From NCBI GenBank assembly GCA_965207855.1, contig OZ242310.1:3444202-3508201 (forward strand): DNA of 64,000 nucleotides, given 5' to 3'. The stretch comes from Candidatus Poribacteria bacterium. GTDB taxonomy: Bacteria > Poribacteria > WGA-4E > WGA-3G. This document shows positions 1,520-51,350 of the stretch, in pieces. How positions within the stretch are numbered: the stretch's first letter is position 1; each line of letters begins with the position of its first letter. The position numbers and the translations under genes were made by a program. Under the pieces are notes generated by a model. The model ran no database searches. It saw only the letters and a list, made by a program, of their open reading frames with translations, and had not been told where the DNA came from.

Positions 1520-1592
1520 TTGTAAACGAATGTATACAAATCTTCACTTTTTCCGAACAAAAATTTTTTTACTTGACAAATATATGCAAAAT

Positions 1593-1733
1593 AGGGCTAT
1601 TTAGTTTTAAGAGTTAAGTTTATCTATGTAAAGCCGTCCCGTTTCCGGATGCCCGAATTTATTCGGGATAGCACACTTTCCCCCAACAAGTTGGGGCATC
1701 CGGATGTAAATTTTTGGAAAACTAAATGCCCCT
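1593..1733. repeat. MITE-like dispersed repeat, copy A: inverted termini AGGGCTATTTAGTTTTAAG ... AAAACTAAATGCCCCT with an internal palindrome CCGGATGCCC..GGGCATCCGG
   Basis: The termini are reverse complements of each other. The same roughly 17-nt terminus recurs at 4867, 10234, 10921, 11003, 40611 and 51207. Confidence 0.55.
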
Positions 1734-1972
1734 AAGCTTCCGTTCCCACTGATTCCCTGTAGGACGGGGAATGCCATACGGGGAAGCCCACACGGGAAAC
1801 CTCATACCGTTGGTTATTTCCTAATCCCGACTTCCCTATCTTCCATCCTTCCGTCTTATAGGAACTGACTTTATTAACCATCCTTGCGAATCGCTAACCG
1901 CTATCTGCCAACCATCAAAAGCATTTGACATAATCCCAAGATATGCTAAACTCTACATAAAGGAGACCCACA

Positions 1973-3608: not shown

Positions 3609-4727
3609 TCACGCCAATATATGTCGTAAGGCGTTTGCGATAATATACTCTTCACCGGCATTGAGGGTGTATGCATTAATAACCAGCGCCTTTTTGCCCT
3701 GTGCGTTCACTTTAATCCTCGGTGTGCCAGCATCAAGTTCCTGTGTGATTTGTGCAGCGTCCTTCCCAGTAATAGCGGCATCAATCTTCACGTGCAGATT
3801 CGACAGTGTATGGCTCCTTTCCGGGTAGTGAACTTCGCACGATACACCGTCAACGCTCGCAAGTTCATGTGCTAATGCTTCATATCTGGCATCTTGTTCC
3901 TTTAGGCGTTTATCGTGGTCGGTGGACAACCAAATATCGATAGCAGTTACCAATCCGATAATCTCCTGTCTATCTACTTTCATGCCGCGTCCGACAGGTC
4001 TCGGTCCAATGAAACCGTGCTGCCGCACTGTTTCGATCATGTCTTTTCTTCCACAGACGAAACCCGTTGAATGTGGCGCGTTGAAATACTTGCCCCCAAA
4101 ACAGACAAGGTCAGCGGATTGGGCATTCCGACGGAAATAGTCAAGCGGATAGATTTGGGCGGCTGCATCAGCAATCACTGGGAGATTGTGTGAGCGGGCA
4201 ATCTCAGTCGCATCTGCTAACGACACGCCATTTTCGTGCTCTGCTTGAATAAGATAGGCAACCGCCGCTGTATTTTCATTGATGGCAGCCGCTAACGCCT
4301 CGTTCGTGCAACCGTTGTCATCGCCAACGTAAATGAGTTTACTCCCAGGAATCGTAAACGCACGATCGTAGGTGTAATGTTGCATCTTCTGAAAAACGAT
4401 TTCATTCTTAAGCCCGCTGGTGTCTGGCAGTTGTGCCATTTTGTCAGGATCGTTTCCCGTCATCACTGTTGCTGATGCCAAAACGAGTGCCGTATAGCAC
4501 CCGGCGGTAATATAGGCATCCTCAACACCGAGTCGTTCCGCTATGAATTGTCCAGATTTTTCCAACAATTCTGCCATTTCGACGTAGCTCGCATCGGCTT
4601 CAAACATCGCTTTGCGAACGGCTGCTGAAGGTGTGGACCCACCGCGCACAGTCTGGTTTCCCTGAGCGTTAATTAGGGGCCGTGCCCCGAGTTTTTTATA
4701 GACGTTTCCCCAACTTGTAGTCGCCAT
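3609..4727 (-). CDS. SelA-like / DgaE-like PLP-dependent enzyme (L-seryl-tRNA selenium transferase-related family, COG1921-type)
   Basis: 372 aa. The FGGKYFNAPHSTGFV segment is a candidate PLP-lysine region. Overall similarity to the SelA-like aminotransferase fold is recalled from memory. Confidence 0.5.
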   Translation of the reverse strand: MATTSWGNVYKKLGARPLINAQGNQTVRGGSTPSAAVRKAMFEADASYVEMAELLEKSGQFIAERLGVEDAYITAGCYTALVLASATVMTGNDPDKMAQLPDTSGLKNEIVFQKMQHYTYDRAFTIPGSKLIYVGDDNGCTNEALAAAINENTAAVAYLIQAEHENGVSLADATEIARSHNLPVIADAAAQIYPLDYFRRNAQSADLVCFGGKYFNAPHSTGFVCGRKDMIETVRQHGFIGPRPVGRGMKVDRQEIIGLVTAIDIWLSTDHDKRLKEQDARYEALAHELASVDGVSCEVHYPERSHTLSNLHVKIDAAITGKDAAQITQELDAGTPRIKVNAQGKKALVINAYTLNAGEEYIIANALRHILA

Positions 4728-4780
4728 GAGATAGCCTCCTTAGTATAAGGATTCTCTGTAACACGGTCATTCAGTTCTTC

Positions 4781-4839
4781 TGTAGGAGGGATTTCCTAAT
4801 CCCGACTTCTTCTTGTAGGAGCGAGCTCCCGTTCGCGAC
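4781..4839. repeat. Two tandem REP-like units: TGTAGGAGGGATTTCCTAATCCCGAC and TGTAGGAGCGAGCTCCCGTTCGCGAC
   Basis: Same unit architecture (TGTAGGAG + short hairpin + GAC) as 10123..10147 and 16276..16301. The copy of the MITE terminus AAAACTAAATAACCCTG lies at 4867..4883. Confidence 0.5.
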
Positions 4840-5033
4840 CTTCCGCTCCAGATGTGCAAAAAGCCTAAAACTAAATAACCCTGTTTCTGTAACTCAAAAG
4901 AGAAAGCGTTAACGGTTTTGGGTGAGAAATCTAAGCACACTTTAATACGAAACGCACAATTTGTCAACTCGTTTAATGTTTTTATTCGATGACTACTAAA
5001 CGATCGCTGACTGCTGACAATTGCTAACAGCCC

Positions 5034-8278: not shown

Positions 8279-9484
8279 ATGAAAAAAATAGAGGGTGGAA
8301 TCACCGCCGTCCAAGGTGTCCGGGCAGCAGGTGTGCACGCAGGTATTAAAGCCGCAGATACAAAAGATGTGACACTCATCGTTACCGACACCCCTGCAGC
8401 CGCCGCCGGAGTCTTCACAAAAAATAGCGTCACCGCTGCACCCGTCATCCTATGCCGTGAGCATCTCAGCGATAGACAGGCACAAGCCGTTATCGTCAAT
8501 AGTGGGAACGCCAATGCTTGCACAGGCGAAGTCGGTATGACAAATGCAAGACGGATGGCATCCGCAACAGCCGAGCAGCTCGGTATAGACGCGGGGCTTG
8601 TTCTCGTCTCTTCAACGGGTGTTATCGGACAGCAGCTGCCGATGGACAAAATCGAAAGTGGAATCCAAACCGCCGTAGAAGCACTCAGTACCGAAGGCGG
8701 AGGCGATGCTGCGGAAGGTATTATGACGACCGATACACACCCGAAATCTATCGCCGTAGAGGCGGAGATTGACGGCGCACCCGTGAGGATTGGTGGAATC
8801 GCTAAAGGGTCTGGCATGGGTGCACCCAATATGGCGACTATGCTCTCCTATCTGACAACAGATGCGCGAATCAACCCTGAAACGCTCCAATCTGCTTTAA
8901 ATCGTGTTGTAGACGATACCTACAACCTCTTAACAATTGACACCGATCGCAGCACAAATGATACCGTGATTCTCCTCGCAACCGGACGTGCTGACAACGC
9001 CGATATTATTGAAGCAACCGGGGAAAATTACGAAGCGTTCTGTGAGGGACTGCAGTTCGTTTGCACCGAGTTAGTGAAGATGCTCGCTCGCGACGGTGAA
9101 GGCGCGACTAAACTTGTTGAGGTAGTCGTTACACACGCCAAAAACCGCGAAGATGCGGAAAAAGCCGCCCGTGCTGTCGCCGAGTCACCGCTCGTCAAAA
9201 CCGCTATTTTCGGCAACGATGCCAATTGGGGACGCATTATGATGGCAATCGGTAAATCTGAAGCAGAATTCGATCCGTATCAGGTGGATGTCTGGATTGC
9301 CGATTATCAACTCGTCAAAGACGGAATGGATGCCGGTTACGATGAAGACAAAGCCACCGCTTTATTCGCGCAAGATTCCCTGCGGATCACGATTGATCTT
9401 CGGGCTGGGGACGCTGAAATCACAATGTGGACGTGCGATTACTCCTATGACTACATCCGAATCAATGCGGATTACCGGACCTAA
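8279..9484 (+). CDS. argJ: Bifunctional glutamate N-acetyltransferase / amino-acid acetyltransferase ArgJ
   Basis: 401 aa. The autoproteolytic ATML..T motif (PNMATMLSYLTTDA) and the overall ArgJ pattern are present. Confidence 0.9.
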   Translation: MKKIEGGITAVQGVRAAGVHAGIKAADTKDVTLIVTDTPAAAAGVFTKNSVTAAPVILCREHLSDRQAQAVIVNSGNANACTGEVGMTNARRMASATAEQLGIDAGLVLVSSTGVIGQQLPMDKIESGIQTAVEALSTEGGGDAAEGIMTTDTHPKSIAVEAEIDGAPVRIGGIAKGSGMGAPNMATMLSYLTTDARINPETLQSALNRVVDDTYNLLTIDTDRSTNDTVILLATGRADNADIIEATGENYEAFCEGLQFVCTELVKMLARDGEGATKLVEVVVTHAKNREDAEKAARAVAESPLVKTAIFGNDANWGRIMMAIGKSEAEFDPYQVDVWIADYQLVKDGMDAGYDEDKATALFAQDSLRITIDLRAGDAEITMWTCDYSYDYIRINADYRT

Positions 9485-10122: not shown

Positions 10123-10147
10123 GTAGGAGCGACCTTTGGTCGCGACT
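10123..10147. repeat. REP-like unit TGTAGGAGCGACCTTTGGTCGCGAC
   Basis: Hairpin GCGACC/GGTCGC. Same family as the units at 4814 and 16276. Confidence 0.5.
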
Positions 10148-10426
10148 CTTACCTTTAACACCAATAACTGTTCTGCTATCCAGCTAGAAAAATAATTGGC
10201 ATTTCGCCGTCAGATGGTGTACAATAATTAGGCAGGGCTATTCAGTTTTAGACTTTTTAACCATTTCGGTTAGGAAGTCTAAAACAGGGTTCGCTCCTAT
10301 GGGAAAGAGTCGAGAATCAGAAGCTCCATCCTATAGAAGAACCAAATGTCCCTGGAATGGATTTACCTTTAACTAACAGTTGAAGCCTCCATGCCCACAA
10401 ACCAATAAAGAAAAGCGGAGAAATAG

Positions 10427-10888
10427 ATGAACTCTGAAAAAGGCTATGCAGTCCTTCTTCCTGAAAACTATCCATGGAAAATATCCAACAGCATGAAACT
10501 CCCTAATGCCTATATTACGGTTCCGTTAGGAAGTGAGAATCTGAGGGCACGGTACTGGAAACTTCCACCGTATTCTGCCAATACCTTACACAAACATGTA
10601 AGTTCAGAAGAACTTTATATTGTGCTTGAAGGGACGGGCAAAATTCGTATTGAAGATGAGACTATCAGGGTCCCAAAATACGGGTCGGTCCTCGTTGCCC
10701 CTGAAAGGATACGTCAAATCTTCAATGACACACCTCAAGAGGTCCTGTGGCTTATTGTCGGAGAACCCGAACCGGAATTAGAAGGCAATCAAGAATTTCG
10801 CCCTGAGATGTTTTATCCCCAAAACCCGCAACAACTGCCGAAAGAATTAACTGGACATCAATGGCCGCCCAAGGAGAAAAATGGTTGA
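10427..10888 (+). CDS. Cupin-domain protein
   Basis: 153 aa. A cupin_2-like core is present: HKHVSSEELYIVLEGTG...YGSVLVAPERIRQIFN. Confidence 0.6.
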   Translation: MNSEKGYAVLLPENYPWKISNSMKLPNAYITVPLGSENLRARYWKLPPYSANTLHKHVSSEELYIVLEGTGKIRIEDETIRVPKYGSVLVAPERIRQIFNDTPQEVLWLIVGEPEPELEGNQEFRPEMFYPQNPQQLPKELTGHQWPPKEKNG

Positions 10889-10920
10889 AGAGATAGGACT
10901 TCGACTCCGGTAGCACGCAA

Positions 10921-11018
10921 GGTCATTTGGTTTTAAGAATTTATGCAGCGCGGTTAGGAAACCGTACCTACCGGGCCTTAGGGGTAAAAAATCAGTAGAG
11001 TGGAAAACTAAATGCCCC
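10921..11018. repeat. MITE-like dispersed repeat, copy C: termini GGTCATTTGGTTTTAAG ... GAAAACTAAATGCCCC
   Basis: Inverted termini about 98 bp apart, lying immediately upstream of thrS. Confidence 0.5.
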
Positions 11019-11115
11019 AAATAATTAAACGTAAACAGTGTACGAAAAAAGACGTTAAGTCTATTGTCAACAATTTTTAAACCCATACGAATTGACATAA
11101 TGAGAGTAGATCCCA

Positions 11116-12903
11116 ATGCGTGAATCCAATCAACCTGAAGACTACCTACAACGCTTACGCCATTCAACCGCGCACATCATGGCGTATGCCGTCCAACAAC
11201 TATTCCCAGATGGCGAACGGACCGTTAAACTCGCAATCGGCCCCCCGATTGAGAACGAGTTCTATTACGATATGGAGGTGCCACGCCCTATTACACCCGA
11301 CGATTTCCCGGAGATCGAAAAGCACATGAAGGCGATGATTAAAGCCAATGTGCCTTTCCAACAGGAGACGTGGACCTACGATGAGGCTCGCGAATGGTTT
11401 GGCGAACGAAACCAAAAATTCAAACTCGAATTAATCGACGGAATCTCCGATCAGGAAGTCAACGCCAGTGATGAAGGGGTCGCTGACGAAGGTGTTTCTA
11501 TCTATCACAACGGTGATTTCACTGACCTCTGTAAAGGACCGCACGTCGAGAAAACAGGCGAGTGCCGATATTTCAAACTGCTCCGCGTTTCTGGAGCCTA
11601 TTGGCGCGGCGATGGCAATCGCGAGCAGTTACAACGCATTTATGGTACCGCATGGGAGACCAAAGCCGACCTTCAGGCATACTTAACACAACGCGAAGAA
11701 GCCGCCAAACGCGACCATCGCAGACTCGGACGCGAACTGGAACTGTTTCAGATGCATCCTGAATCTCCGGGTAGTCCTTTTTGGCTTCCCAAAGGCGCAT
11801 TCATCTATAATCTCTTGTCTGAAAAGGTACGGAAACTCTATATCAGTGAAGGGTATCAAGAGGTACGGACACCGCTCGTCTACGATAGCAGTCTCTGGGA
11901 AACCTCTGGACATTGGGAACACTTCAAGGAGAATATGTTCCTCATTGAAAGTGAGGACGGTGGATCGGTAAGTGCACTTAAACCGATGAACTGTCCGGCG
12001 CACATGCTTATCTATAAAAGTGCGCGCCACAGTTATCGCGACCTGCCTTACCGTCTACACGACCAAGGCGTGTTGCATCGCAACGAAGCCACTGGCACGC
12101 TCACCGGTTTGTCGCGCGTCCGTCAGATGTGTCAAGACGACGCTCACAACTTCGTTACCGAAGACCAGATTGCCGATGAATATGAACGCATCCTTGGGCT
12201 TTTTGACCGTATCTATGGGACATTTGATTTACCGTTCCGATGCGATTTGAGTACACGCAATCCTGACAAGTTCATGGGTGATGTTGAGGTCTGGAATCGT
12301 GCGGAAAACATGCTTGAGAGTGTGTTGAAAAACAACCAGATTGAGTATAGCATTGATCCAGGGGAAGCAGCGTTTTACGGTCCCAAACTCGATTTTCAGG
12401 TGCGTGATTCACTCAACCGAGATGTCCAATGTGCTACCGTCCAACTCGATTTTCAACTTCCTGAACGGTTTGAACTCATCTATGTCGCACCCGATGGATC
12501 CGAGAAACGACCTGTCGTTATCCATCGTGCGATTTGTGGGAGTTTTGAACGTTTCATCGCCATGCTCATTGAGCATTATGCCGGTGCGTTTCCGACGTGG
12601 CTCTCTCCCGTCCAATGTGTTGTGATGACGATCAGTCAACGCTTCGTTGACTACGCCACAGAGGTCCATCAGTTGCTATCGCAAAAGGGGTGTCGGGTTG
12701 AATTGGATAACAGCGACGATAAGATTGGGGCAAAAATCCGTCTCGCCCGTTTGCAACGTGTCCCCTATATGTTGATCATCGGTGGACGTGAACAGGAGAA
12801 CCGCACCGTCAGTGTCCGAAGTCGAGATGAAGGCGACATCGGCGCGATGGCACTTGATACTTTCGTTGAAAAAATTGCTCAAGAAGCCGATTTAGATTTT
12901 TAA
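11116..12903 (+). CDS. thrS: Threonine--tRNA ligase lacking the N-terminal TGS (N1) domain
   Basis: Residue by residue it aligns with E. coli ThrRS from the N2 editing domain onward (RHSTAHIMAYAVQQLFP ...). Class-II motifs and the anticodon-binding domain are present. Length is 595 aa against about 640. Confidence 0.9.
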   Translation: MRESNQPEDYLQRLRHSTAHIMAYAVQQLFPDGERTVKLAIGPPIENEFYYDMEVPRPITPDDFPEIEKHMKAMIKANVPFQQETWTYDEAREWFGERNQKFKLELIDGISDQEVNASDEGVADEGVSIYHNGDFTDLCKGPHVEKTGECRYFKLLRVSGAYWRGDGNREQLQRIYGTAWETKADLQAYLTQREEAAKRDHRRLGRELELFQMHPESPGSPFWLPKGAFIYNLLSEKVRKLYISEGYQEVRTPLVYDSSLWETSGHWEHFKENMFLIESEDGGSVSALKPMNCPAHMLIYKSARHSYRDLPYRLHDQGVLHRNEATGTLTGLSRVRQMCQDDAHNFVTEDQIADEYERILGLFDRIYGTFDLPFRCDLSTRNPDKFMGDVEVWNRAENMLESVLKNNQIEYSIDPGEAAFYGPKLDFQVRDSLNRDVQCATVQLDFQLPERFELIYVAPDGSEKRPVVIHRAICGSFERFIAMLIEHYAGAFPTWLSPVQCVVMTISQRFVDYATEVHQLLSQKGCRVELDNSDDKIGAKIRLARLQRVPYMLIIGGREQENRTVSVRSRDEGDIGAMALDTFVEKIAQEADLDF

Positions 12904-16275: not shown

Positions 16276-16301
16276 TGTAGGAGCGATTTCCCAATCGCGA
16301 C
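16276..16301. repeat. REP-like unit TGTAGGAGCGATTTCCCAATCGCGAC
   Basis: Hairpin GCGATT/AATCGC immediately after the iscS stop codon, followed by TTTTG. It may double as a terminator. Confidence 0.5.
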
Positions 16302-40568: not shown

Positions 40569-40707
40569 GGTTTGCTCCTCCTTTATGCTAAAATACTTAT
40601 GATAGATTTGAAAACTAAATAGAACTTTGTACTGCCACCGGAAATTAGGGCCACCCTCTAAGGCAAGATTGTGATATACTAACAATCTATTTGAAAGGAG
40701 CATTCCG

Positions 40708-40995
40708 ATGGCGAAACGAACGAGATACACCCCCGAGTTTAAAGCAGCAGTCGTGCTGGAGGCCCTCAGCGGTGAAAGTTCAAAGCAGAACTCTGCCGGC
40801 GACATAACCTCAGCGAACAACAACTCTCGAAGTGGAAGCAGCAAGCGATTGAAAACTTTGCGTCTCTGTTTGGCTCCAAGGATAAAGCGTCAGCGGCGGA
40901 TGCGTCGCGTATCGCTCACCTTGAGCAACTCGTTGGGCGTCTCACTGTCGCCTTAGACATTGAAAAAAAAGCCGCGAAGTGGTTGCCCTAACGGC
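40708..40995 (+). pseudogene. IS3 orfA (transposase HTH) carrying an apparent 1-nt frameshift near 40780 in addition to the programmed site
   Basis: Frame 1 gives MAKRTRYTPEFKAAVVLEALSGESS. A second frame continues with the canonical KAELCRRHNLSEQQLSKWKQQAIENF...LDIEKKAAKWLP. Confidence 0.55.
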
Positions 40996-41833
40996 ATCAA
41001 AGAAACGAGAAATGGTGGCAAAAGTGCACAAGGCTTCTTCATATTCGATTCGGCAGATTTGTAAGACCCTCGGCTACAACCGGAATCTTCTCTATTATCA
41101 GCCGAAGCGCCCCCCTTCTCAAGAGGGACTGCGAACGAGAATAGAGGAGTTAGCGGCAACCTATCCAACATACGGATATAGACGTATCACGAAGTTGTTG
41201 GCGGCTGAAGGGCACACCGTTGGGTATAAGCGCGTCGCCCGGTTGATGAAAGAAGCCCATCTCTCGGTGGCTGTCAAACGTGCGTGTCAAACGACCCACG
41301 CCGCTGAGAGTCGGCAACCGTGGCAGAATCGCCTGAAGACCCTTGAGATCTGTCGTTGCGATCAGGTCTGGGTCGGCGATATCACCTACGTCCGCCTCAA
41401 CAGACGCTTCGTTTATGTCGCTCTGCTCATGGATGTCTTCACGCGCATGATTCGAGGGTGGAATCTCAGTCAACACTTGACGCAATCTTTGACCTTGCGC
41501 CCCTTAGAGCAAGCTTTAGACGACAGGGTTCCCGAGATTCATCACTCTGATCAAGGCGTGCAGTATCTTTCAAAGGACTATATCTCACTGCTGAGGCAGC
41601 ATGGCGTTGAGATTTCGGTCGCACACAGAGGACGCCCTTGGGAGAACGGATACGCTGAACGGTTGATCCGCACCCTCAAGGAAGAAGAAGTCCACCTTAA
41701 CGACTATCAGAACATCCACGAAGCCAGAGATCGCATCGAGCATTTTATCACACAGGTGTATCATCAGAAACGCCCACATTCGGCGTTAGGCTATTTGACA
41801 CCTATGGAATTTCAGCAACAAAACTTGTCTTAA
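40979..41833 (+). CDS. IS3 orfB (DDE integrase core)
   Basis: rve-type catalytic core with the DDE residues. Confidence 0.85.
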   Translation: MVALTASKKREMVAKVHKASSYSIRQICKTLGYNRNLLYYQPKRPPSQEGLRTRIEELAATYPTYGYRRITKLLAAEGHTVGYKRVARLMKEAHLSVAVKRACQTTHAAESRQPWQNRLKTLEICRCDQVWVGDITYVRLNRRFVYVALLMDVFTRMIRGWNLSQHLTQSLTLRPLEQALDDRVPEIHHSDQGVQYLSKDYISLLRQHGVEISVAHRGRPWENGYAERLIRTLKEEEVHLNDYQNIHEARDRIEHFITQVYHQKRPHSALGYLTPMEFQQQNLS

Positions 41834-42056
41834 CTTTACGGAATTTTGGCCCTAATAAAGGGTGGCACTACACTTAAAACGTGCGATGAATCGCAATACT
41901 ACAAGCAGGACCGTTCGTAGTAGAGCAATTTATTGCTCGTCAATTACCAAAATATTTTTTCAAATTTCAGTTTGTGCTACAGAACGTTTAAGGCATCTTC
42001 TACCTTTGCCTTATTGAACCACTTGTCAACAAGCTGCGTAAGTTCTAACGGGAGCT

Positions 42057-47427: not shown

Positions 47428-48984
47428 CTACTCAACAATAACTTCTGGGCGACCGTCCAGCATCCATTCGGTATGGAACACCGTCGGTTCCCCGTCTTTT
47501 CCGAGGATCGTGTTGCCGTCTGCGTCTAACTTATGGTAGGTGTGCGCCCCGAAGTAGTCGCGCATCGCTTGAATCAGATTCGCAGAGAGCCTACCGTTAC
47601 GATAGCTATCAAAATATGCTAAAGCCGAACTGAACGCCGGAATCGGGACACCGAGCTGCGTGGCTGTGCTGATAACATTCCGCCAGTTCGGTTGTGCCGC
47701 CTCAATGACACCTCGGAAATACGAGTCAAGGAGTAGGTTCGGCAACTCAGGGTTCCGCTCGAACGCCTCTGCAATCCGGTGTAGAAATTTTGCCCGAATG
47801 ATACACCCACCCCGCCAGCCAAGACTAATCTTGCCGAGGTCCAAATCCCATCCGAACTCTGCACTTGCTTCTCGCATCAAGGCGAAGCCTTGCGCATAAG
47901 AGCAGATTTTCGCAGCGTAAAGTGCGTCGTGAATCGCCTTTAGCATTTCCTCACGATCGCCTTGGTATGCCCCGGAAGGTCCTTGGATAACCTGTGCCGC
48001 TGCGACGCGTTCACTTTTTATCGCCGAGATACACCGCGCAAAAACCGCTTCTGCGATCGTCGGTGCGGATATACCGAGATCCAGTGCCGAGATGCTCGTC
48101 CATTTGCCAGTTCCCTTTTGTCCGGCTTGATCCAACACGACATCAACAAAAGGCGTACCACTGCTATCGAGTTGTGTGAAAATATCAGCCGTAATCTCAA
48201 TGAGGTAAGAGTTGAGTTCGCCGCTATTCCATTCACTAAAAACCTCGTGCGTCTCTTTGGCATTCATGCCGAGGACACCTTTCATCAGCGAGTAGGCTTC
48301 ACATATCAGCTGCATGTCCCCGTATTCGATGCCGTTATGCACCATCTTCACGTAGTGCCCCGCACCATCCGGTCCGATGTAAGAACAACACGGCGTACCG
48401 TCTACCTGCGCTGCGATTTTCGTGAAGATCGGTTCCACGAGTGCGTAAGCCGCAGCTGAACCCCCGGGCATCATCGCCGGTCCCTTTAACGCGCCTTCTT
48501 CTCCACCCGAAATGCCTGTCCCAATAAACAAAATATCTTTTTCGGCTAACTCGGCGTGCCGACGGACGGTGTCGTTGAAGTTTGAATTTCCACCATCAAT
48601 AATGAGATCGCCTTTTGAGAGGTGTGGGACTAATTGCGCGATAAACGCGTCAACGGGTTCCCCCGCTTTCACCATTAGGATAATTTTTCGAGGGCTTTCC
48701 AGTTTCTCGATGAGTTCTGTCACCGAGTGTGCCCCTGTGATATTTTTACCGTTCGCAGTACCTGCTATGAAAGCGTCAACGCGTGCGACGGTCCGGTTGA
48801 AGACCGCTACTTCAAAGCCTTTGCTTTCCATATTCAGGGCAAGGTTTTCGCCCATCACTGCTAATCCGATGAGTCCAATATCTGCCGCCAAATTTGTGTT
48901 CCTCCTATGATAGAGTTGGTCTTGAATATCATAAACCGCAGAGGAAATAGTGTCAATATGTTTTTTCTCAGAGGCTAGGGTCAT
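47428..48984 (-). CDS. gnd: 6-phosphogluconate dehydrogenase (decarboxylating); annotated ORF has a ~35-aa N-terminal extension relative to E. coli Gnd
   Basis: Near-collinear with E. coli Gnd from DIGLIGLAVMGENLALN onwards. The ATG abuts the IS630 terminus. Confidence 0.85.
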   Translation of the reverse strand: MTLASEKKHIDTISSAVYDIQDQLYHRRNTNLAADIGLIGLAVMGENLALNMESKGFEVAVFNRTVARVDAFIAGTANGKNITGAHSVTELIEKLESPRKIILMVKAGEPVDAFIAQLVPHLSKGDLIIDGGNSNFNDTVRRHAELAEKDILFIGTGISGGEEGALKGPAMMPGGSAAAYALVEPIFTKIAAQVDGTPCCSYIGPDGAGHYVKMVHNGIEYGDMQLICEAYSLMKGVLGMNAKETHEVFSEWNSGELNSYLIEITADIFTQLDSSGTPFVDVVLDQAGQKGTGKWTSISALDLGISAPTIAEAVFARCISAIKSERVAAAQVIQGPSGAYQGDREEMLKAIHDALYAAKICSYAQGFALMREASAEFGWDLDLGKISLGWRGGCIIRAKFLHRIAEAFERNPELPNLLLDSYFRGVIEAAQPNWRNVISTATQLGVPIPAFSSALAYFDSYRNGRLSANLIQAMRDYFGAHTYHKLDADGNTILGKDGEPTVFHTEWMLDGRPEVIVE

Positions 48985-49006
48985 TTATGGTAAACCTGAG
49001 AATTAA

Positions 49007-49558
49007 TTAGACATTTGCATATTCTTGAATAATCTCCTGAAGTGTTGAGTCGGGGTTATATTCGCGTTTGCGTTTGATATTGGCAAAATCATGTTCAATC
49101 GGATTATAATCCGGGGAATAAGGTGGCAGAAATAGCAGCCTCGCACCCGTCGCCTCTACGAGCTCTCGCGTCCGAGAAGTCTTGTGGAGCATCGCATTAT
49201 CTAAGATGAGGACATGACTCGGAGTCAAATGTGGACATAACTCCTCGGCTAACCAGTCGTTGAAATCGGCGGATTTACACCCGCCTTGAAGCAATCGCAC
49301 AGCTCTGAAAGTTCCTTGAAAACGCGCCGCAAGGAGTGTGGTCGTCCGGGTGCGTTGGCTCGAAATCAACCCATAGACGGCTTGACCTTTCGGGGCATAC
49401 CCGAAGCGTCTATGACTTTCGTCTCGGAAACCGCTTTCATCGGCGTAAACTACACATTTGCCTGCGCGCTTGAGCGTAGCGAGTTCCTGACGGTAGGCGG
49501 CGCGTTGTTTCGGACATCGCTCCTTATAGCCGAGTGTTTTTTTTTCGGGTAATCCCAA
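49007..49558 (-). CDS. IS630-family transposase, DDE (DDE_3) catalytic part
   Basis: ADESGF...ILDNAMLHKT...LPPYSPDYNPIE is the DD(35)E pattern. Confidence 0.75.
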   Translation of the reverse strand: MGLPEKKTLGYKERCPKQRAAYRQELATLKRAGKCVVYADESGFRDESHRRFGYAPKGQAVYGLISSQRTRTTTLLAARFQGTFRAVRLLQGGCKSADFNDWLAEELCPHLTPSHVLILDNAMLHKTSRTRELVEATGARLLFLPPYSPDYNPIEHDFANIKRKREYNPDSTLQEIIQEYANV

Positions 49559-49844
49559 GCGTTTTCAAGCCATAGTAAACACAAAACTCCGAGACGCCCA
49601 AATCAGCGGCGCGTTCGGCTTGCGTCTGATCCGGGAAGTCAGCGACATGTTTTTCAAGTGCCTGCAGATCAAGGGTTCTTGGACCCCGGGGCCCCGGTTT
49701 CTCACGCACCAACGGGTCTTCGGCATTCAACCATGTATACAGAGTTGCGCGTGCGATGGAAAACTGCTGGCAGGCTTCGGTCTTTTTACCGCCAGCTGCG
49801 ATGAACGCTAAAACGCATTTGCGGAAATCTGATGAATAAGCCAT
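49524..49844 (-). CDS. IS630-family transposase, N-terminal HTH part (joined to the DDE part by frameshift)
   Basis: HTH segment CQQFSIARATLYTWL, and a 35-nt overlap containing the A9 run. Confidence 0.7.
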   Translation of the reverse strand: MAYSSDFRKCVLAFIAAGGKKTEACQQFSIARATLYTWLNAEDPLVREKPGPRGPRTLDLQALEKHVADFPDQTQAERAADLGVSEFCVYYGLKTLGITRKKNTRL

Positions 49845-49907
49845 AATACCAAAAGGCTAACATAAATCTAATAAAGTGTCTATTTATTTATCTGGGTTAC
49901 CATAGTT

Positions 49908-51101
49908 TTAAAAGTTATTCTTTAGTAAAGTCAATGCTTGTTTAGGATGTGCGGCGAAATATCTCATTGTTTTAGCGATAGCTTCATATCCTGCTAAGCG
50001 TAATATAGAAAGTGCGGTGTTCCGCAAAGCTGCCATGACTGCCGGGATTGCGCCACAGCGGACTTGAGAAGCATCTTCACCGAGAAGCATGTCTCGGATC
50101 CAATGGGACTTATTTTCTATCGCCCAATGTCCGCGCTTGAGGCGTAAAAGGTCAGCTGCGGTGGCACGGTTAGGTTCAAGGCTCGTGATGCCATAGTGTG
50201 TCTGGCAGGCGACTTCTCCGGTTCGTAGGTTCTTGCGGGTGTATGTGCACTCGAAGACCTGCCGGACCCCTGGCCAGTCTATGTATTCATTAAGTGCGGT
50301 GCTTGCCGTCAAACGTCGTGTTTCAAAGCGTCCATGGGCTTGGTCAACGGTTTTGCGAGTGTCAAGGGTTTCTCCCCAGTCTTGGTGTTCTGCCTTGAGG
50401 ATGTTATAGGCGGTCTGAAAGGTTGTTTCGGTAGGTCGCCGAAACAACCTTTCAATATCTTCATAGACCTGTTTATGGTTGGCTTTGACGGGTAAAACGT
50501 AATCCCCGCCTGATTCTAAAACCGATGCGCAAAAACGGCGTTGCGTCAATAGAGCATCTGCTGTCACGACCTTGCCAGAAACATCAAACGCCTTGAGGAT
50601 TTCACGCGAGACGGGCACTTCATGCGTCTTCTCTGACATCGCTTTTTGCGTGAGAGTAATACCGAGTTCATGAGAAACGACTGACATCAAATGCGTGAAC
50701 TTCGCACCTTGTTTCTTGCTACCCCGTAAGGTCTTGCCATCTATAGCGACAGCCGTCAGACCGCCTTGACTGCCCCAACCCAAGTCCTCAAGCGCACTTG
50801 AAGCCCACTGCGTCAGCACGGTTTCTAAGTCATCAATGTCTAATCTACGAAAAAGATTGTAGAATGTTGCGGCACATGGTGTTTTCCTATGTGTGAACCC
50901 TAAGGCTTTTCTGAGTGCCTTGTAGGTGCGTCCGTATTCAGCAATAGCTGCATAGCTGCGATATCCAGACATCATGGCAATGATAGCGAGTGCGAGGATT
51001 GCCTTTAGTGGATGTCTTTTGCCTTTTTCCTTGCGTGGGTCTGCGACGGATGCTAACATATCAAGTAAGTGGCGAGAGGGTTTTCTCGTCATGAGCTTCA
51101 C
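49908..51101 (-). CDS. ISAs1-family (IS4-related, H-repeat-associated) transposase
   Basis: 397 aa. The N-terminal DDE_Tnp_1_assoc-like region (KRHPLKAILALAIIAMMSGYRSYAAIAEYG) and the C-terminal GHWAIENKSHWIRD are ISAs1 hallmarks. Confidence 0.75.
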   Translation of the reverse strand: MKLMTRKPSRHLLDMLASVADPRKEKGKRHPLKAILALAIIAMMSGYRSYAAIAEYGRTYKALRKALGFTHRKTPCAATFYNLFRRLDIDDLETVLTQWASSALEDLGWGSQGGLTAVAIDGKTLRGSKKQGAKFTHLMSVVSHELGITLTQKAMSEKTHEVPVSREILKAFDVSGKVVTADALLTQRRFCASVLESGGDYVLPVKANHKQVYEDIERLFRRPTETTFQTAYNILKAEHQDWGETLDTRKTVDQAHGRFETRRLTASTALNEYIDWPGVRQVFECTYTRKNLRTGEVACQTHYGITSLEPNRATAADLLRLKRGHWAIENKSHWIRDMLLGEDASQVRCGAIPAVMAALRNTALSILRLAGYEAIAKTMRYFAAHPKQALTLLKNNF

Positions 51102-51350
51102 CTCAAAGGTTGTGGTAAATTTTTAAGGTGAAGTATAGCATGTATGGCGTGAAAACTCACGCCATACATGCAGATATAAAAACATAAATCTGCCAAAGCA
51201 AAACTTAAAACTAAATGACCCTATCTCAGAGGCAGTCAGCTGTCGCTAAAAATCCAGATTAGACCCCTGGCACTTATGTTGCTCTGGATCACCAGAGAAG
51301 TGTCCTTCAAGGAACACATGAATCACCTTTGCTTTCGAGGGGTGAGGATG

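Follow-up and report, generated by a model that had tools for sequence, protein, structure and literature searches.

The 64,000-nt window analysed here, part of a Candidatus Poribacteria contig, contains four short units, denoted A to D (Table 1), which belong, with high probability, to a family of miniature inverted-repeat elements (MITEs) derived from insertion sequences of the ISAs1 family. The same window encodes an ISAs1 element with the same ends, the presumed autonomous parent as judged from its sequence. The units are 103–143 bp long and are very probably type I MITEs, in which the two ends are kept around short, hairpin-rich interiors. They show the features by which such elements are recognized: a non-coding length of less than about 600 bp, inverted repeats, target duplication, dispersed copies, ends common with an insertion sequence, and presence/absence polymorphism. 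The earlier note on this DNA had suggested a MITE-like dispersed family, and this suggestion passes all feasible sequence tests, namely those for inverted repeats, duplications, empty sites, near-identical copies and an ISAs1 element with the same ends.

Termini and units in the window

The terminal word that drew attention to the family is present at every position that had been named in the window, at a frequency far above chance. With up to three mismatches, GGGNCATTTAGTTTTAAG has six matches compared with 0.13 expected, and six or more are found in none of the 100 shuffled sequences; with up to one mismatch, GGNYATTTAGTTTT has seven matches compared with 0.20 expected, a number that no shuffle attains. 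The termini of the elements are YAGGGNYATTTAGTTTT...AAAACTAAATRNCCCTR, which form inverted repeats of 17–19 nt on all four units. The exact boundaries can be gleaned from unit B, where the alignment with a related locus, L001, breaks exactly at the unit, so that the elements start with YAGGG and finish with CCCTR, and a 9-bp target duplication lies outside.

With these boundaries, the three pairs of 98–141 bp that had been described turn out to be real, but the number of complete units is four rather than three, and their ends lie 1–2 nt further out. The copy at 10234, previously listed without a partner, has its partner end at 10338–10354, detected by a looser scan, and thus is part of the complete unit C. 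The word at 40611, previously taken for a partial member, is only a 13-nt match (GAAAACTAAATAG) without the GGG terminus and without internal similarity; removal of the adjacent IS3 element (40628–41872) in silico restores no element end at this site, and this word is not counted as a family member. Finally, the copy described as lying next to ISAs1 is indeed associated with an ISAs1 element, but 51207–51223 is the left inverted repeat of that element itself, not a separate adjoining unit.

Table 1. Positions of units A to D, which are very probably MITEs, and of associated features in the window
Feature	Position	Strand	Details
Matches to GGNYATTTAGTTTT	1595+, 1718-, 4867-, 10236+, 10921+, 11004-, 51207-		at most one mismatch
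MITE unit A	1592..1734	+	143 bp; 143-bp subfamily; ends TAGGGCTATTTAGTTTTAAG / TAGGGGCATTTAGTTTTCCA; internal double hairpin
Target-site duplication of B, left copy	4753..4761	.	9 bp; TCTCTGTAA
MITE unit B	4762..4883	-	122 bp; main 122-bp subfamily
REP-like hairpins nested in B	4783-4806, 4816-4839		
Target-site duplication of B, right copy	4884..4892	.	TTTCTGTAA; 8/9 identical to left copy
Putative target duplication of the C-cupin-D block, left copy	10224..10232	.	9 bp; ATAATTAGG
MITE unit C	10233..10354	+	122 bp; 122-bp subfamily; left arm of putative composite
Putative passenger segment	10355..10917	+	563 bp; cupin ORF 10427-10888, 153 aa, Cupin_2 (PF07883)
MITE unit D	10918..11020	+	103 bp; ends CAAGGTCATTTGG / TTGGGGCATTTAG; shortened, decayed member of the 142-bp subfamily
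Putative target duplication of the C-cupin-D block, right copy	11021..11029	.	ATAATTAAA; 7/9 identical to left copy
10-bp direct repeat, left of ISAs1	48966..48975	.	TCTCAGAGGC
ISAs1-family insertion sequence	48976..51223	-	2248 bp as found, about 1331 bp without IS630
ISAs1 right repeat, split	48976-48987 + 49905 onward (GTTTTAAAAG)		reconstructed TAGGGTCATTTAGTTTTAAAAG
TA duplication of IS630	48986-48987 and 49903-49904		target inside the ISAs1 right repeat
IS630-family insertion sequence	48988..49902	-	915 bp; ends TGGTAAACC.../...GGGTTACCA; NF033545
ISAs1-family transposase gene	49908..51101	-	397 aa, full length
ISAs1 left repeat	51205-51223		TAGGGTCATTTAGTTTTAAGTT
10-bp direct repeat, right of ISAs1	51224..51233	.	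TCTCAGAGGC, perfect copy

As noted earlier, the units are intergenic, and the sole ORF that overlaps any of the four is a spurious 66-aa frame. The internal sequence or structure that paired copies were anticipated to have in common is found as well: the interiors of B and C are roughly 70–80% identical, A resembles a copy in another Poribacteria genome, and the interior of D resembles the 142-bp subfamily; A and D represent two other subfamilies. Specifically, unit A is 90% identical over 142 nt to locus L057 (OZ246958.1) and clusters with five other Poribacteria units, and 46 nt of the interior of D (10948–10993) are 83% identical to L090.

Unit B provides the clearest case of insertion. In L001 (ENA ERZ24894577), whose sequence matches that of the window at 99% identity on either side of B, the unit is missing and the empty site consists of a single TCTCTGTAA, compared with the arrangement TCTCTGTAA-[CACGG...CCCTG]-TTTCTGTAA in the window. 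The insertion lies between a promoter-like site on the minus strand (4967–4939) and the start codon, at 4727, of a SelA-like gene, that is, in a putative 5' leader, and transcription would be expected to run through the unit. The sequence that carries this empty site (ena:ERZ24894577:ctg522474l) is 10.96 Mb long, compared with at most 6.8 Mb for the scanned Poribacteria chromosomes, and could stem from an assembly that is chimeric or concatenated, or from a genome of exceptional size.

For unit A, no target-site duplication is recognizable, the flanks ATGCAAAA and AGCTTCCG being different, and no empty site was found among the related loci; one of these, L053, contains the upstream ORF without the downstream DNA. 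The approximately 190 bp immediately to the right of A (1735–1921) are dense in other short repeats, such as CTGTAGGACGGGGAATGCC and TTTCCTAATCCCGACTTCC, the latter of which also occurs inside B, and this segment is missing from the otherwise 99%-identical L001. The repeat-rich segment may account for the absent target duplication, and a later rearrangement to the right of A appears likely. Upstream of A, the catalytic domain of a group II intron (RF00029, 55.6 bits) maps to 872–947 and is preceded by a 176-aa ORF (315–845) without a Pfam match; the 315–947 region may be an intron remnant or contain a degenerate intron-encoded protein.

The family in other genomes and its presumed ISAs1 parent

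The family extends far beyond the window. A two-ended pattern, AGGGNYATTYRGTTYT-N85-115-AACYRAATRNCC, for which about one chance match is expected in 596 Gb by our own estimate, identifies at least 115 loci, almost all of them in Candidatus Poribacteria; among the matches listed, at least 30 Candidatus Poribacteria genomes contribute about 100 loci, the few others being from Blastocatellia, Gemmatimonas, Chthonomonadales, Kiritimatiellae and one Heliobacteriaceae bin. The pattern was designed from the window copies, so that these copy numbers are lower bounds and the consensus at positions 2–17 is fixed by selection. Position 1 lies outside the pattern, and it is C or T in 230 of the 234 ends (C in 75% and T in 23%), followed by AGGG.

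The statistic of the direct repeats, too, is independent of the search pattern. Exact direct repeats of 8–10 bp abut 78 of the 117 listed units (9 bp in 49, 10 bp in 22 and 8 bp in 7 units), and when one mismatch is allowed, this number rises to 97 (83%), with the mode at 9 bp; when left and right flanks are paired at random as a control, less than one unit has such repeats. Within the window, one duplication brackets B, A has none, and C and D have a single outer one. The listed units tend to avoid genes: only 4 of 115 lie within open frames of at least 120 codons, though such frames span 82% of the loci.

The units in related genomes are 119–147 bp long, with modes at 122 and 143 bp, and fall into three subfamilies that have only the termini in common, the interiors being unrelated. 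Copy numbers in individual genomes can be substantial: OZ244616.1 has at least 16 units, and OZ250160.1 at least 34, with a median best pairwise identity of 99.2%, which indicates recent amplification. The near identity of such copies suggests ongoing ISAs1 transposition in Poribacteria. The same two genomes contain short tandem arrays of units: four units with a 126-bp period and the 4-nt spacer GAAG in L033 (212–711), two units with a common 8-bp duplication, AGTATTCT, in L025 (4208–4459), and a duplicated 179-bp segment that holds one unit in L007 (4758–5058). In the bins assigned to Blastocatellia, Gemmatimonas and Chthonomonadales (L006, L013, L018, L027, L067, L081, L097 and L113), the ends of the units are unchanged, being CAGGGTCATTCAGTTTTC for the most part, and duplications of 9 bp flank them, but the interiors are unrelated, which implies that this ISAs1 subgroup and its MITEs are not confined to Poribacteria.

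These observations bear on the alternative raised by the earlier note, namely that many promoters and terminators reuse the word as a site bound by a regulatory protein or RNA, with regulatory selection keeping it in place. Such a site could be accommodated with the intergenic position of the units, with the placement of B in a putative 5' leader and of the C-D block right behind a promoter-like site (see below), and with the strong RNA folds of the units. However, it leaves unexplained the target-specific 8–10-bp direct repeats around 83% of the listed copies, the precise empty sites, the 99% identity of copies at unrelated loci, and the fact that a transposase-encoding element has identical ends. 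One would not expect a regulatory site to show target duplications or presence/absence polymorphism, which leaves the alternative unsupported, and the unrelated interiors of the subfamilies speak against it as well. Furthermore, no Rfam 15 family matches in or near any unit at the gathering thresholds, the matches in the window being limited to three tRNAs and the group II intron domain, and terminator-like sites are not enriched around the units (9 compared with 13 expected, with one inside a unit). All told, a regulatory origin of the word is very improbable.

The transposase-encoding element with these ends belongs to the ISAs1 family. For elements of this family, PMC11946415 gives inverted repeats of 14–22 bp, with CAGGG at the start, and direct repeats of 10 bp, in agreement with ISArsp11 (PMC6305408), and the window element has both. 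Removal of an IS630 element inserted in the right repeat leaves it with two ends that agree at all 19 nt. The transposase scores 229.7 bits against the NCBIfam profile NF033564 (cut-off 70) over all of its positions (1–314 of 314), contains the Pfam domains DDE_Tnp_1_assoc and DDE_Tnp_1, and is 53–76% identical to the copies in L106, L100 and L080; the terminal word copy at 51207–51223 stands 103 bp upstream of this ORF. Of the related elements, the one in L106 is complete (1347 bp) and has the same ends as the MITEs and the duplication TAAGATAGG, the one in L080 is interrupted but has the same ends and the duplication AAGGCTATGG, and the left repeat of the one in L100 is identical to that of the window element. 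The duplications of the ISAs1 elements are 9, 10 and 10 bp long, similar to those of the units. In the full-profile transposase and the length of 1.33–1.35 kb, as well as in the repeats starting with CAGGG (or TAGGG) and the direct repeats of 9–10 bp, the presumed parent resembles the known members of the family, ISAs1, ISArsp11, IS1358 and the H-repeat elements (PMC11946415, PMC6305408). The MITE units differ from all of these in being 103–143 bp long and encoding nothing, and the repeat of the present family, YAGGGNYATTTAGTTTT, differs from the ISArsp11 repeat, CAGGGCTGATGCAAAGTCG, past the first five nucleotides.

The right repeat of the window copy is disrupted, so this copy may itself be immobile. 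Mobilization of the units would involve the DDE transposase of a full ISAs1 copy (such as that encoded at 49908–51101), which would bind both ends in trans, excise or copy the unit, and insert it at a staggered cut, giving rise to the 9-bp (8–10 bp) duplication. Because any two correctly oriented ends would be usable, a larger segment such as the C-cupin-D block could move as a composite. Action of the transposase in trans, the choice between cut-and-paste and copy modes, and effects on the transcription of neighboring genes are all extrapolated from the sequences.

The other transposase in the vicinity is that of the IS630 element, which is encoded in two overlapping frames (49524–49844 and 49007–49558) with the domains HTH_Tnp_IS630 and DDE_3. 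Nezha in cyanobacteria and RUP in pneumococcus, paired with IS630 and IS630-Spn1, respectively, are bacterial MITEs with a parent insertion sequence, and the units could in principle have been derived from and mobilized by the IS630 element in a similar manner, given that its transposase (49007–49844) lies near one copy of the word and that TA is found on both sides of unit A. The TA at unit A, however, belongs to the TAGGG...CCCTA terminus itself, the ends of the IS630 element are different (TGGTAAACC...), and its duplication is TA, whereas the MITE duplications are 9 bp of arbitrary sequence. Thus, neither the TA duplication nor the IS630 ends that define the Nezha-like and RUP-like elements are found in the units, and the length of the target duplication together with the end sequence rules out IS630 as the parent, a derivation that retains next to no probability. 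A cyanobacterial Nezha-like MITE was also considered and dropped, there being no HIP1 sites in the window; the window ThrS, for which a 97% identical homologue exists, has named homologues from Candidatus Poribacteria only. The derivation of the units from ISAs1 is the one adopted below.

Two further observations concern the insertion sequences of the window. ISAs1 lies directly upstream of a 6-phosphogluconate-dehydrogenase-like gene (ORF 47428–48984, minus strand), and the first ATG of this ORF (48982–48984) is within the ISAs1 inverted repeat, so that the N-terminal extension of approximately 35 aa is doubtful. The IS3-family element at 40628–41872 (1245 bp) has imperfect 26-nt inverted repeats and a 3-bp duplication, CTT, and is located just upstream of a large vWA-like ORF.

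The cupin block upstream of thrS

Units C and D bracket a cupin gene, unit D being the right arm of a putative composite that encompasses 788 bp in total (10233–11020). Neither C nor D has a target duplication of its own, and the imperfect outer repeat brackets the block as a whole, the sequence ATAATTA occurring in the flank left of C and again in that right of D. In two related genomes, the homology to the window ends at 10229 and restarts at 11019–11020 with nothing in between (L118 and L117), and a single copy of the target is present, ATAATTTAG in L118 and ATAATTATG in L117. When 10233–11029 is excised in silico, the window becomes colinear with L117, L118 and L121.

The cupin ORF has only four close homologues, the others being at most 59% identical and the named ones among them coming from Verrucomicrobia; a metagenome scan for additional copies of the block yielded only relatives with 48–52% identity. 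Most of the passenger segment (10368–10914) is 82% identical to a cupin locus in L119/L120 that lacks MITE ends and has unrelated neighbor genes. In L121, a cupin gene with no MITEs lies in the argJ-thrS neighborhood, across three tRNA genes, and the target upstream of thrS is empty. The 401-aa ORF of the window at 8279–9484 has a counterpart in L121 that matches the Pfam ArgJ family.

The most economical reading of these comparisons, and a probable one, is that two MITEs came to flank a cupin gene and that their outer ends then transposed the 788-bp block. A more intricate course of events retains some probability, given that the duplication is imperfect (7/9) and that the comparison genomes are 12–15% diverged in this region. 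A competing reading is two independent insertions of C and D beside a resident cupin gene, followed by a precise loss of the 788-bp block in the compared genomes; the imperfect outer repeat and the cupin gene that L121 has in the same argJ-thrS neighborhood fit such a history. It is, nevertheless, unlikely: neither unit has its own target duplication, three genomes have a single intact target without a footprint, the L121 gene is located beyond the three tRNA genes while its thrS-upstream target is empty, and the cupin gene of L119/L120 is found at an unrelated locus.

If the block indeed moved as a composite, the insertion would have placed the cupin gene behind a promoter-like site. A promoter-like sequence, TTGGCA-18-TACAAT (10196–10225), lies upstream of thrS and is conserved in the relatives, and the block starts 7 bp past its –10 box. 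Because the insertion is right behind this site, the cupin gene is probably read from it, and transcription may run through the entire block.

The earlier note described thrS as N-terminally truncated, a description that does not hold. The ThrS protein consists of 595 aa, and its roughly 110 nearest homologues, which include all the named Candidatus Poribacteria ThrS, are 584–604 aa long or are shorter fragments. The window ThrS (11116–12903) and these homologues have no N-terminal TGS domain, and PF02824 is found only in a more distant homologue of 639 aa. Judging from these relatives, the short ThrS is a lineage trait, not a truncation.

RNA folds, the nested repeat and relation to known elements

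Three of the four units have strong predicted RNA folds compared with shuffled controls (z = –5.0 for A, –4.1 for B and –6.4 for C); for D, the fold is not significant (z = –0.8). In an RNAalifold consensus of 23 diverse members of the 122-bp subfamily, the only structure is the stem formed by the terminal repeats, with no conserved interior structure beyond this pairing. A central hairpin is kept in this subfamily as well, and one of its stem pairs covaries (CG in 5, GC in 5, UA in 5 and AU in 3). This hairpin is a 25-nt REP-like motif, GTAGGAGCGAnCTCCnnnTCGCGAC, with a GTAG head and an imperfect palindrome, and its stem variants are GCGAT/ATCGC, GCGAC/GTCGC and GGGAT/ATCCC. The motif also occurs alone, in intergenic positions of the window (10123–10146 and 16278–16301), and in about 1 Mb of Poribacteria sequence, 26 solo copies are found along with 54 nested in 122-bp MITEs.

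REP elements are palindromes of about 20–40 nt with a GTAG head and, to our knowledge, have neither target duplications nor long terminal inverted repeats. Conceivably, the units could owe their spread, as REP/BIME-like palindromes, to a RAYT (Y1) transposase, or they could be genes for structured non-coding RNAs, with the terminal word forming one portion of a conserved stem, and the nested and solo copies of the REP-like hairpin, as well as its covarying stem pair, point in this direction. The units as a whole, however, have long terminal inverted repeats and duplications, unlike REPs; the three subfamilies have the termini alone in common, without an RNA-like core; the consensus fold amounts to the pairing of the terminal repeats; and Rfam offers no match. 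A REP or RNA nature of the complete units is therefore hardly probable, and the REP-like hairpin, which resembles REP/BIME in the GTAG head, the imperfect palindrome and the solo intergenic copies, is more plausibly a small repeat in its own right that some of the MITEs carry.

As ISAs1-derived MITEs, the units have much in common with type I MITEs of known parentage, for example, MITEAba12 (PMC6382973): the small non-coding size, the ends and duplication length of a co-resident insertion sequence, numerous copies between genes, strong predicted folding and polymorphic insertion. They differ in that the parent is an ISAs1 element, the host belongs to the uncultivated phylum Poribacteria, and several subfamilies with unrelated interiors have one common pair of ends. 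The C-cupin-D block likewise has precedents. Passages of PMC6382973 describe MITE pairs that flank class 1 integrons in Acinetobacter and a MITE-297 pair around 76 kb, and the Tn3-derived TIMEs form mosaic non-autonomous transposons (PMC4133298). As in these composites, two non-autonomous elements bracket a passenger, and the outer ends and outer duplication delimit the block. By comparison, the present block is only 788 bp long, contains a single cupin gene, has arms from two MITE subfamilies, is chromosomal and resides in the leader of the essential thrS gene, and its movement is deduced from a comparison of three genomes only.

Thus, MITEs, their insertion sequence parents and MITE-flanked composites are already known, and the new element is the ISAs1-derived set in Poribacteria. 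We found no published papers that link Poribacteria with MITEs and, in the searchable literature, none that link ISAs1 with MITEs; ISAs1 also goes unmentioned in a review on prokaryotic MITEs from 2024. There is about an even chance that this is the first described family of ISAs1-derived MITEs, one that spans the phylum Poribacteria along with relatives in Blastocatellia, Gemmatimonas, Chthonomonadales and Kiritimatiellae, has been recently active, as the 99% identical copies indicate, and whose pairs behave as composite transposons of minimal size and relocate single host genes, in this case, a rare Verrucomicrobia-like cupin into the thrS leader, with the creation of a new transcription unit.

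The family does not change the understanding of transposition. It does show that a conspicuous repeat in an uncultivated phylum of sponge symbionts belongs to ordinary transposon biology and is not a new regulatory signal. With the parent enzyme named, the definition of the ends (YAGGGNYATTTAGTTTT plus the 9-bp duplication) lets annotators mask and track these elements, and the insertion polymorphisms can serve to mark strains in metagenomic data. If its history is as proposed, the small MITE-flanked cupin block would be a clean natural case of gene movement by non-autonomous elements.
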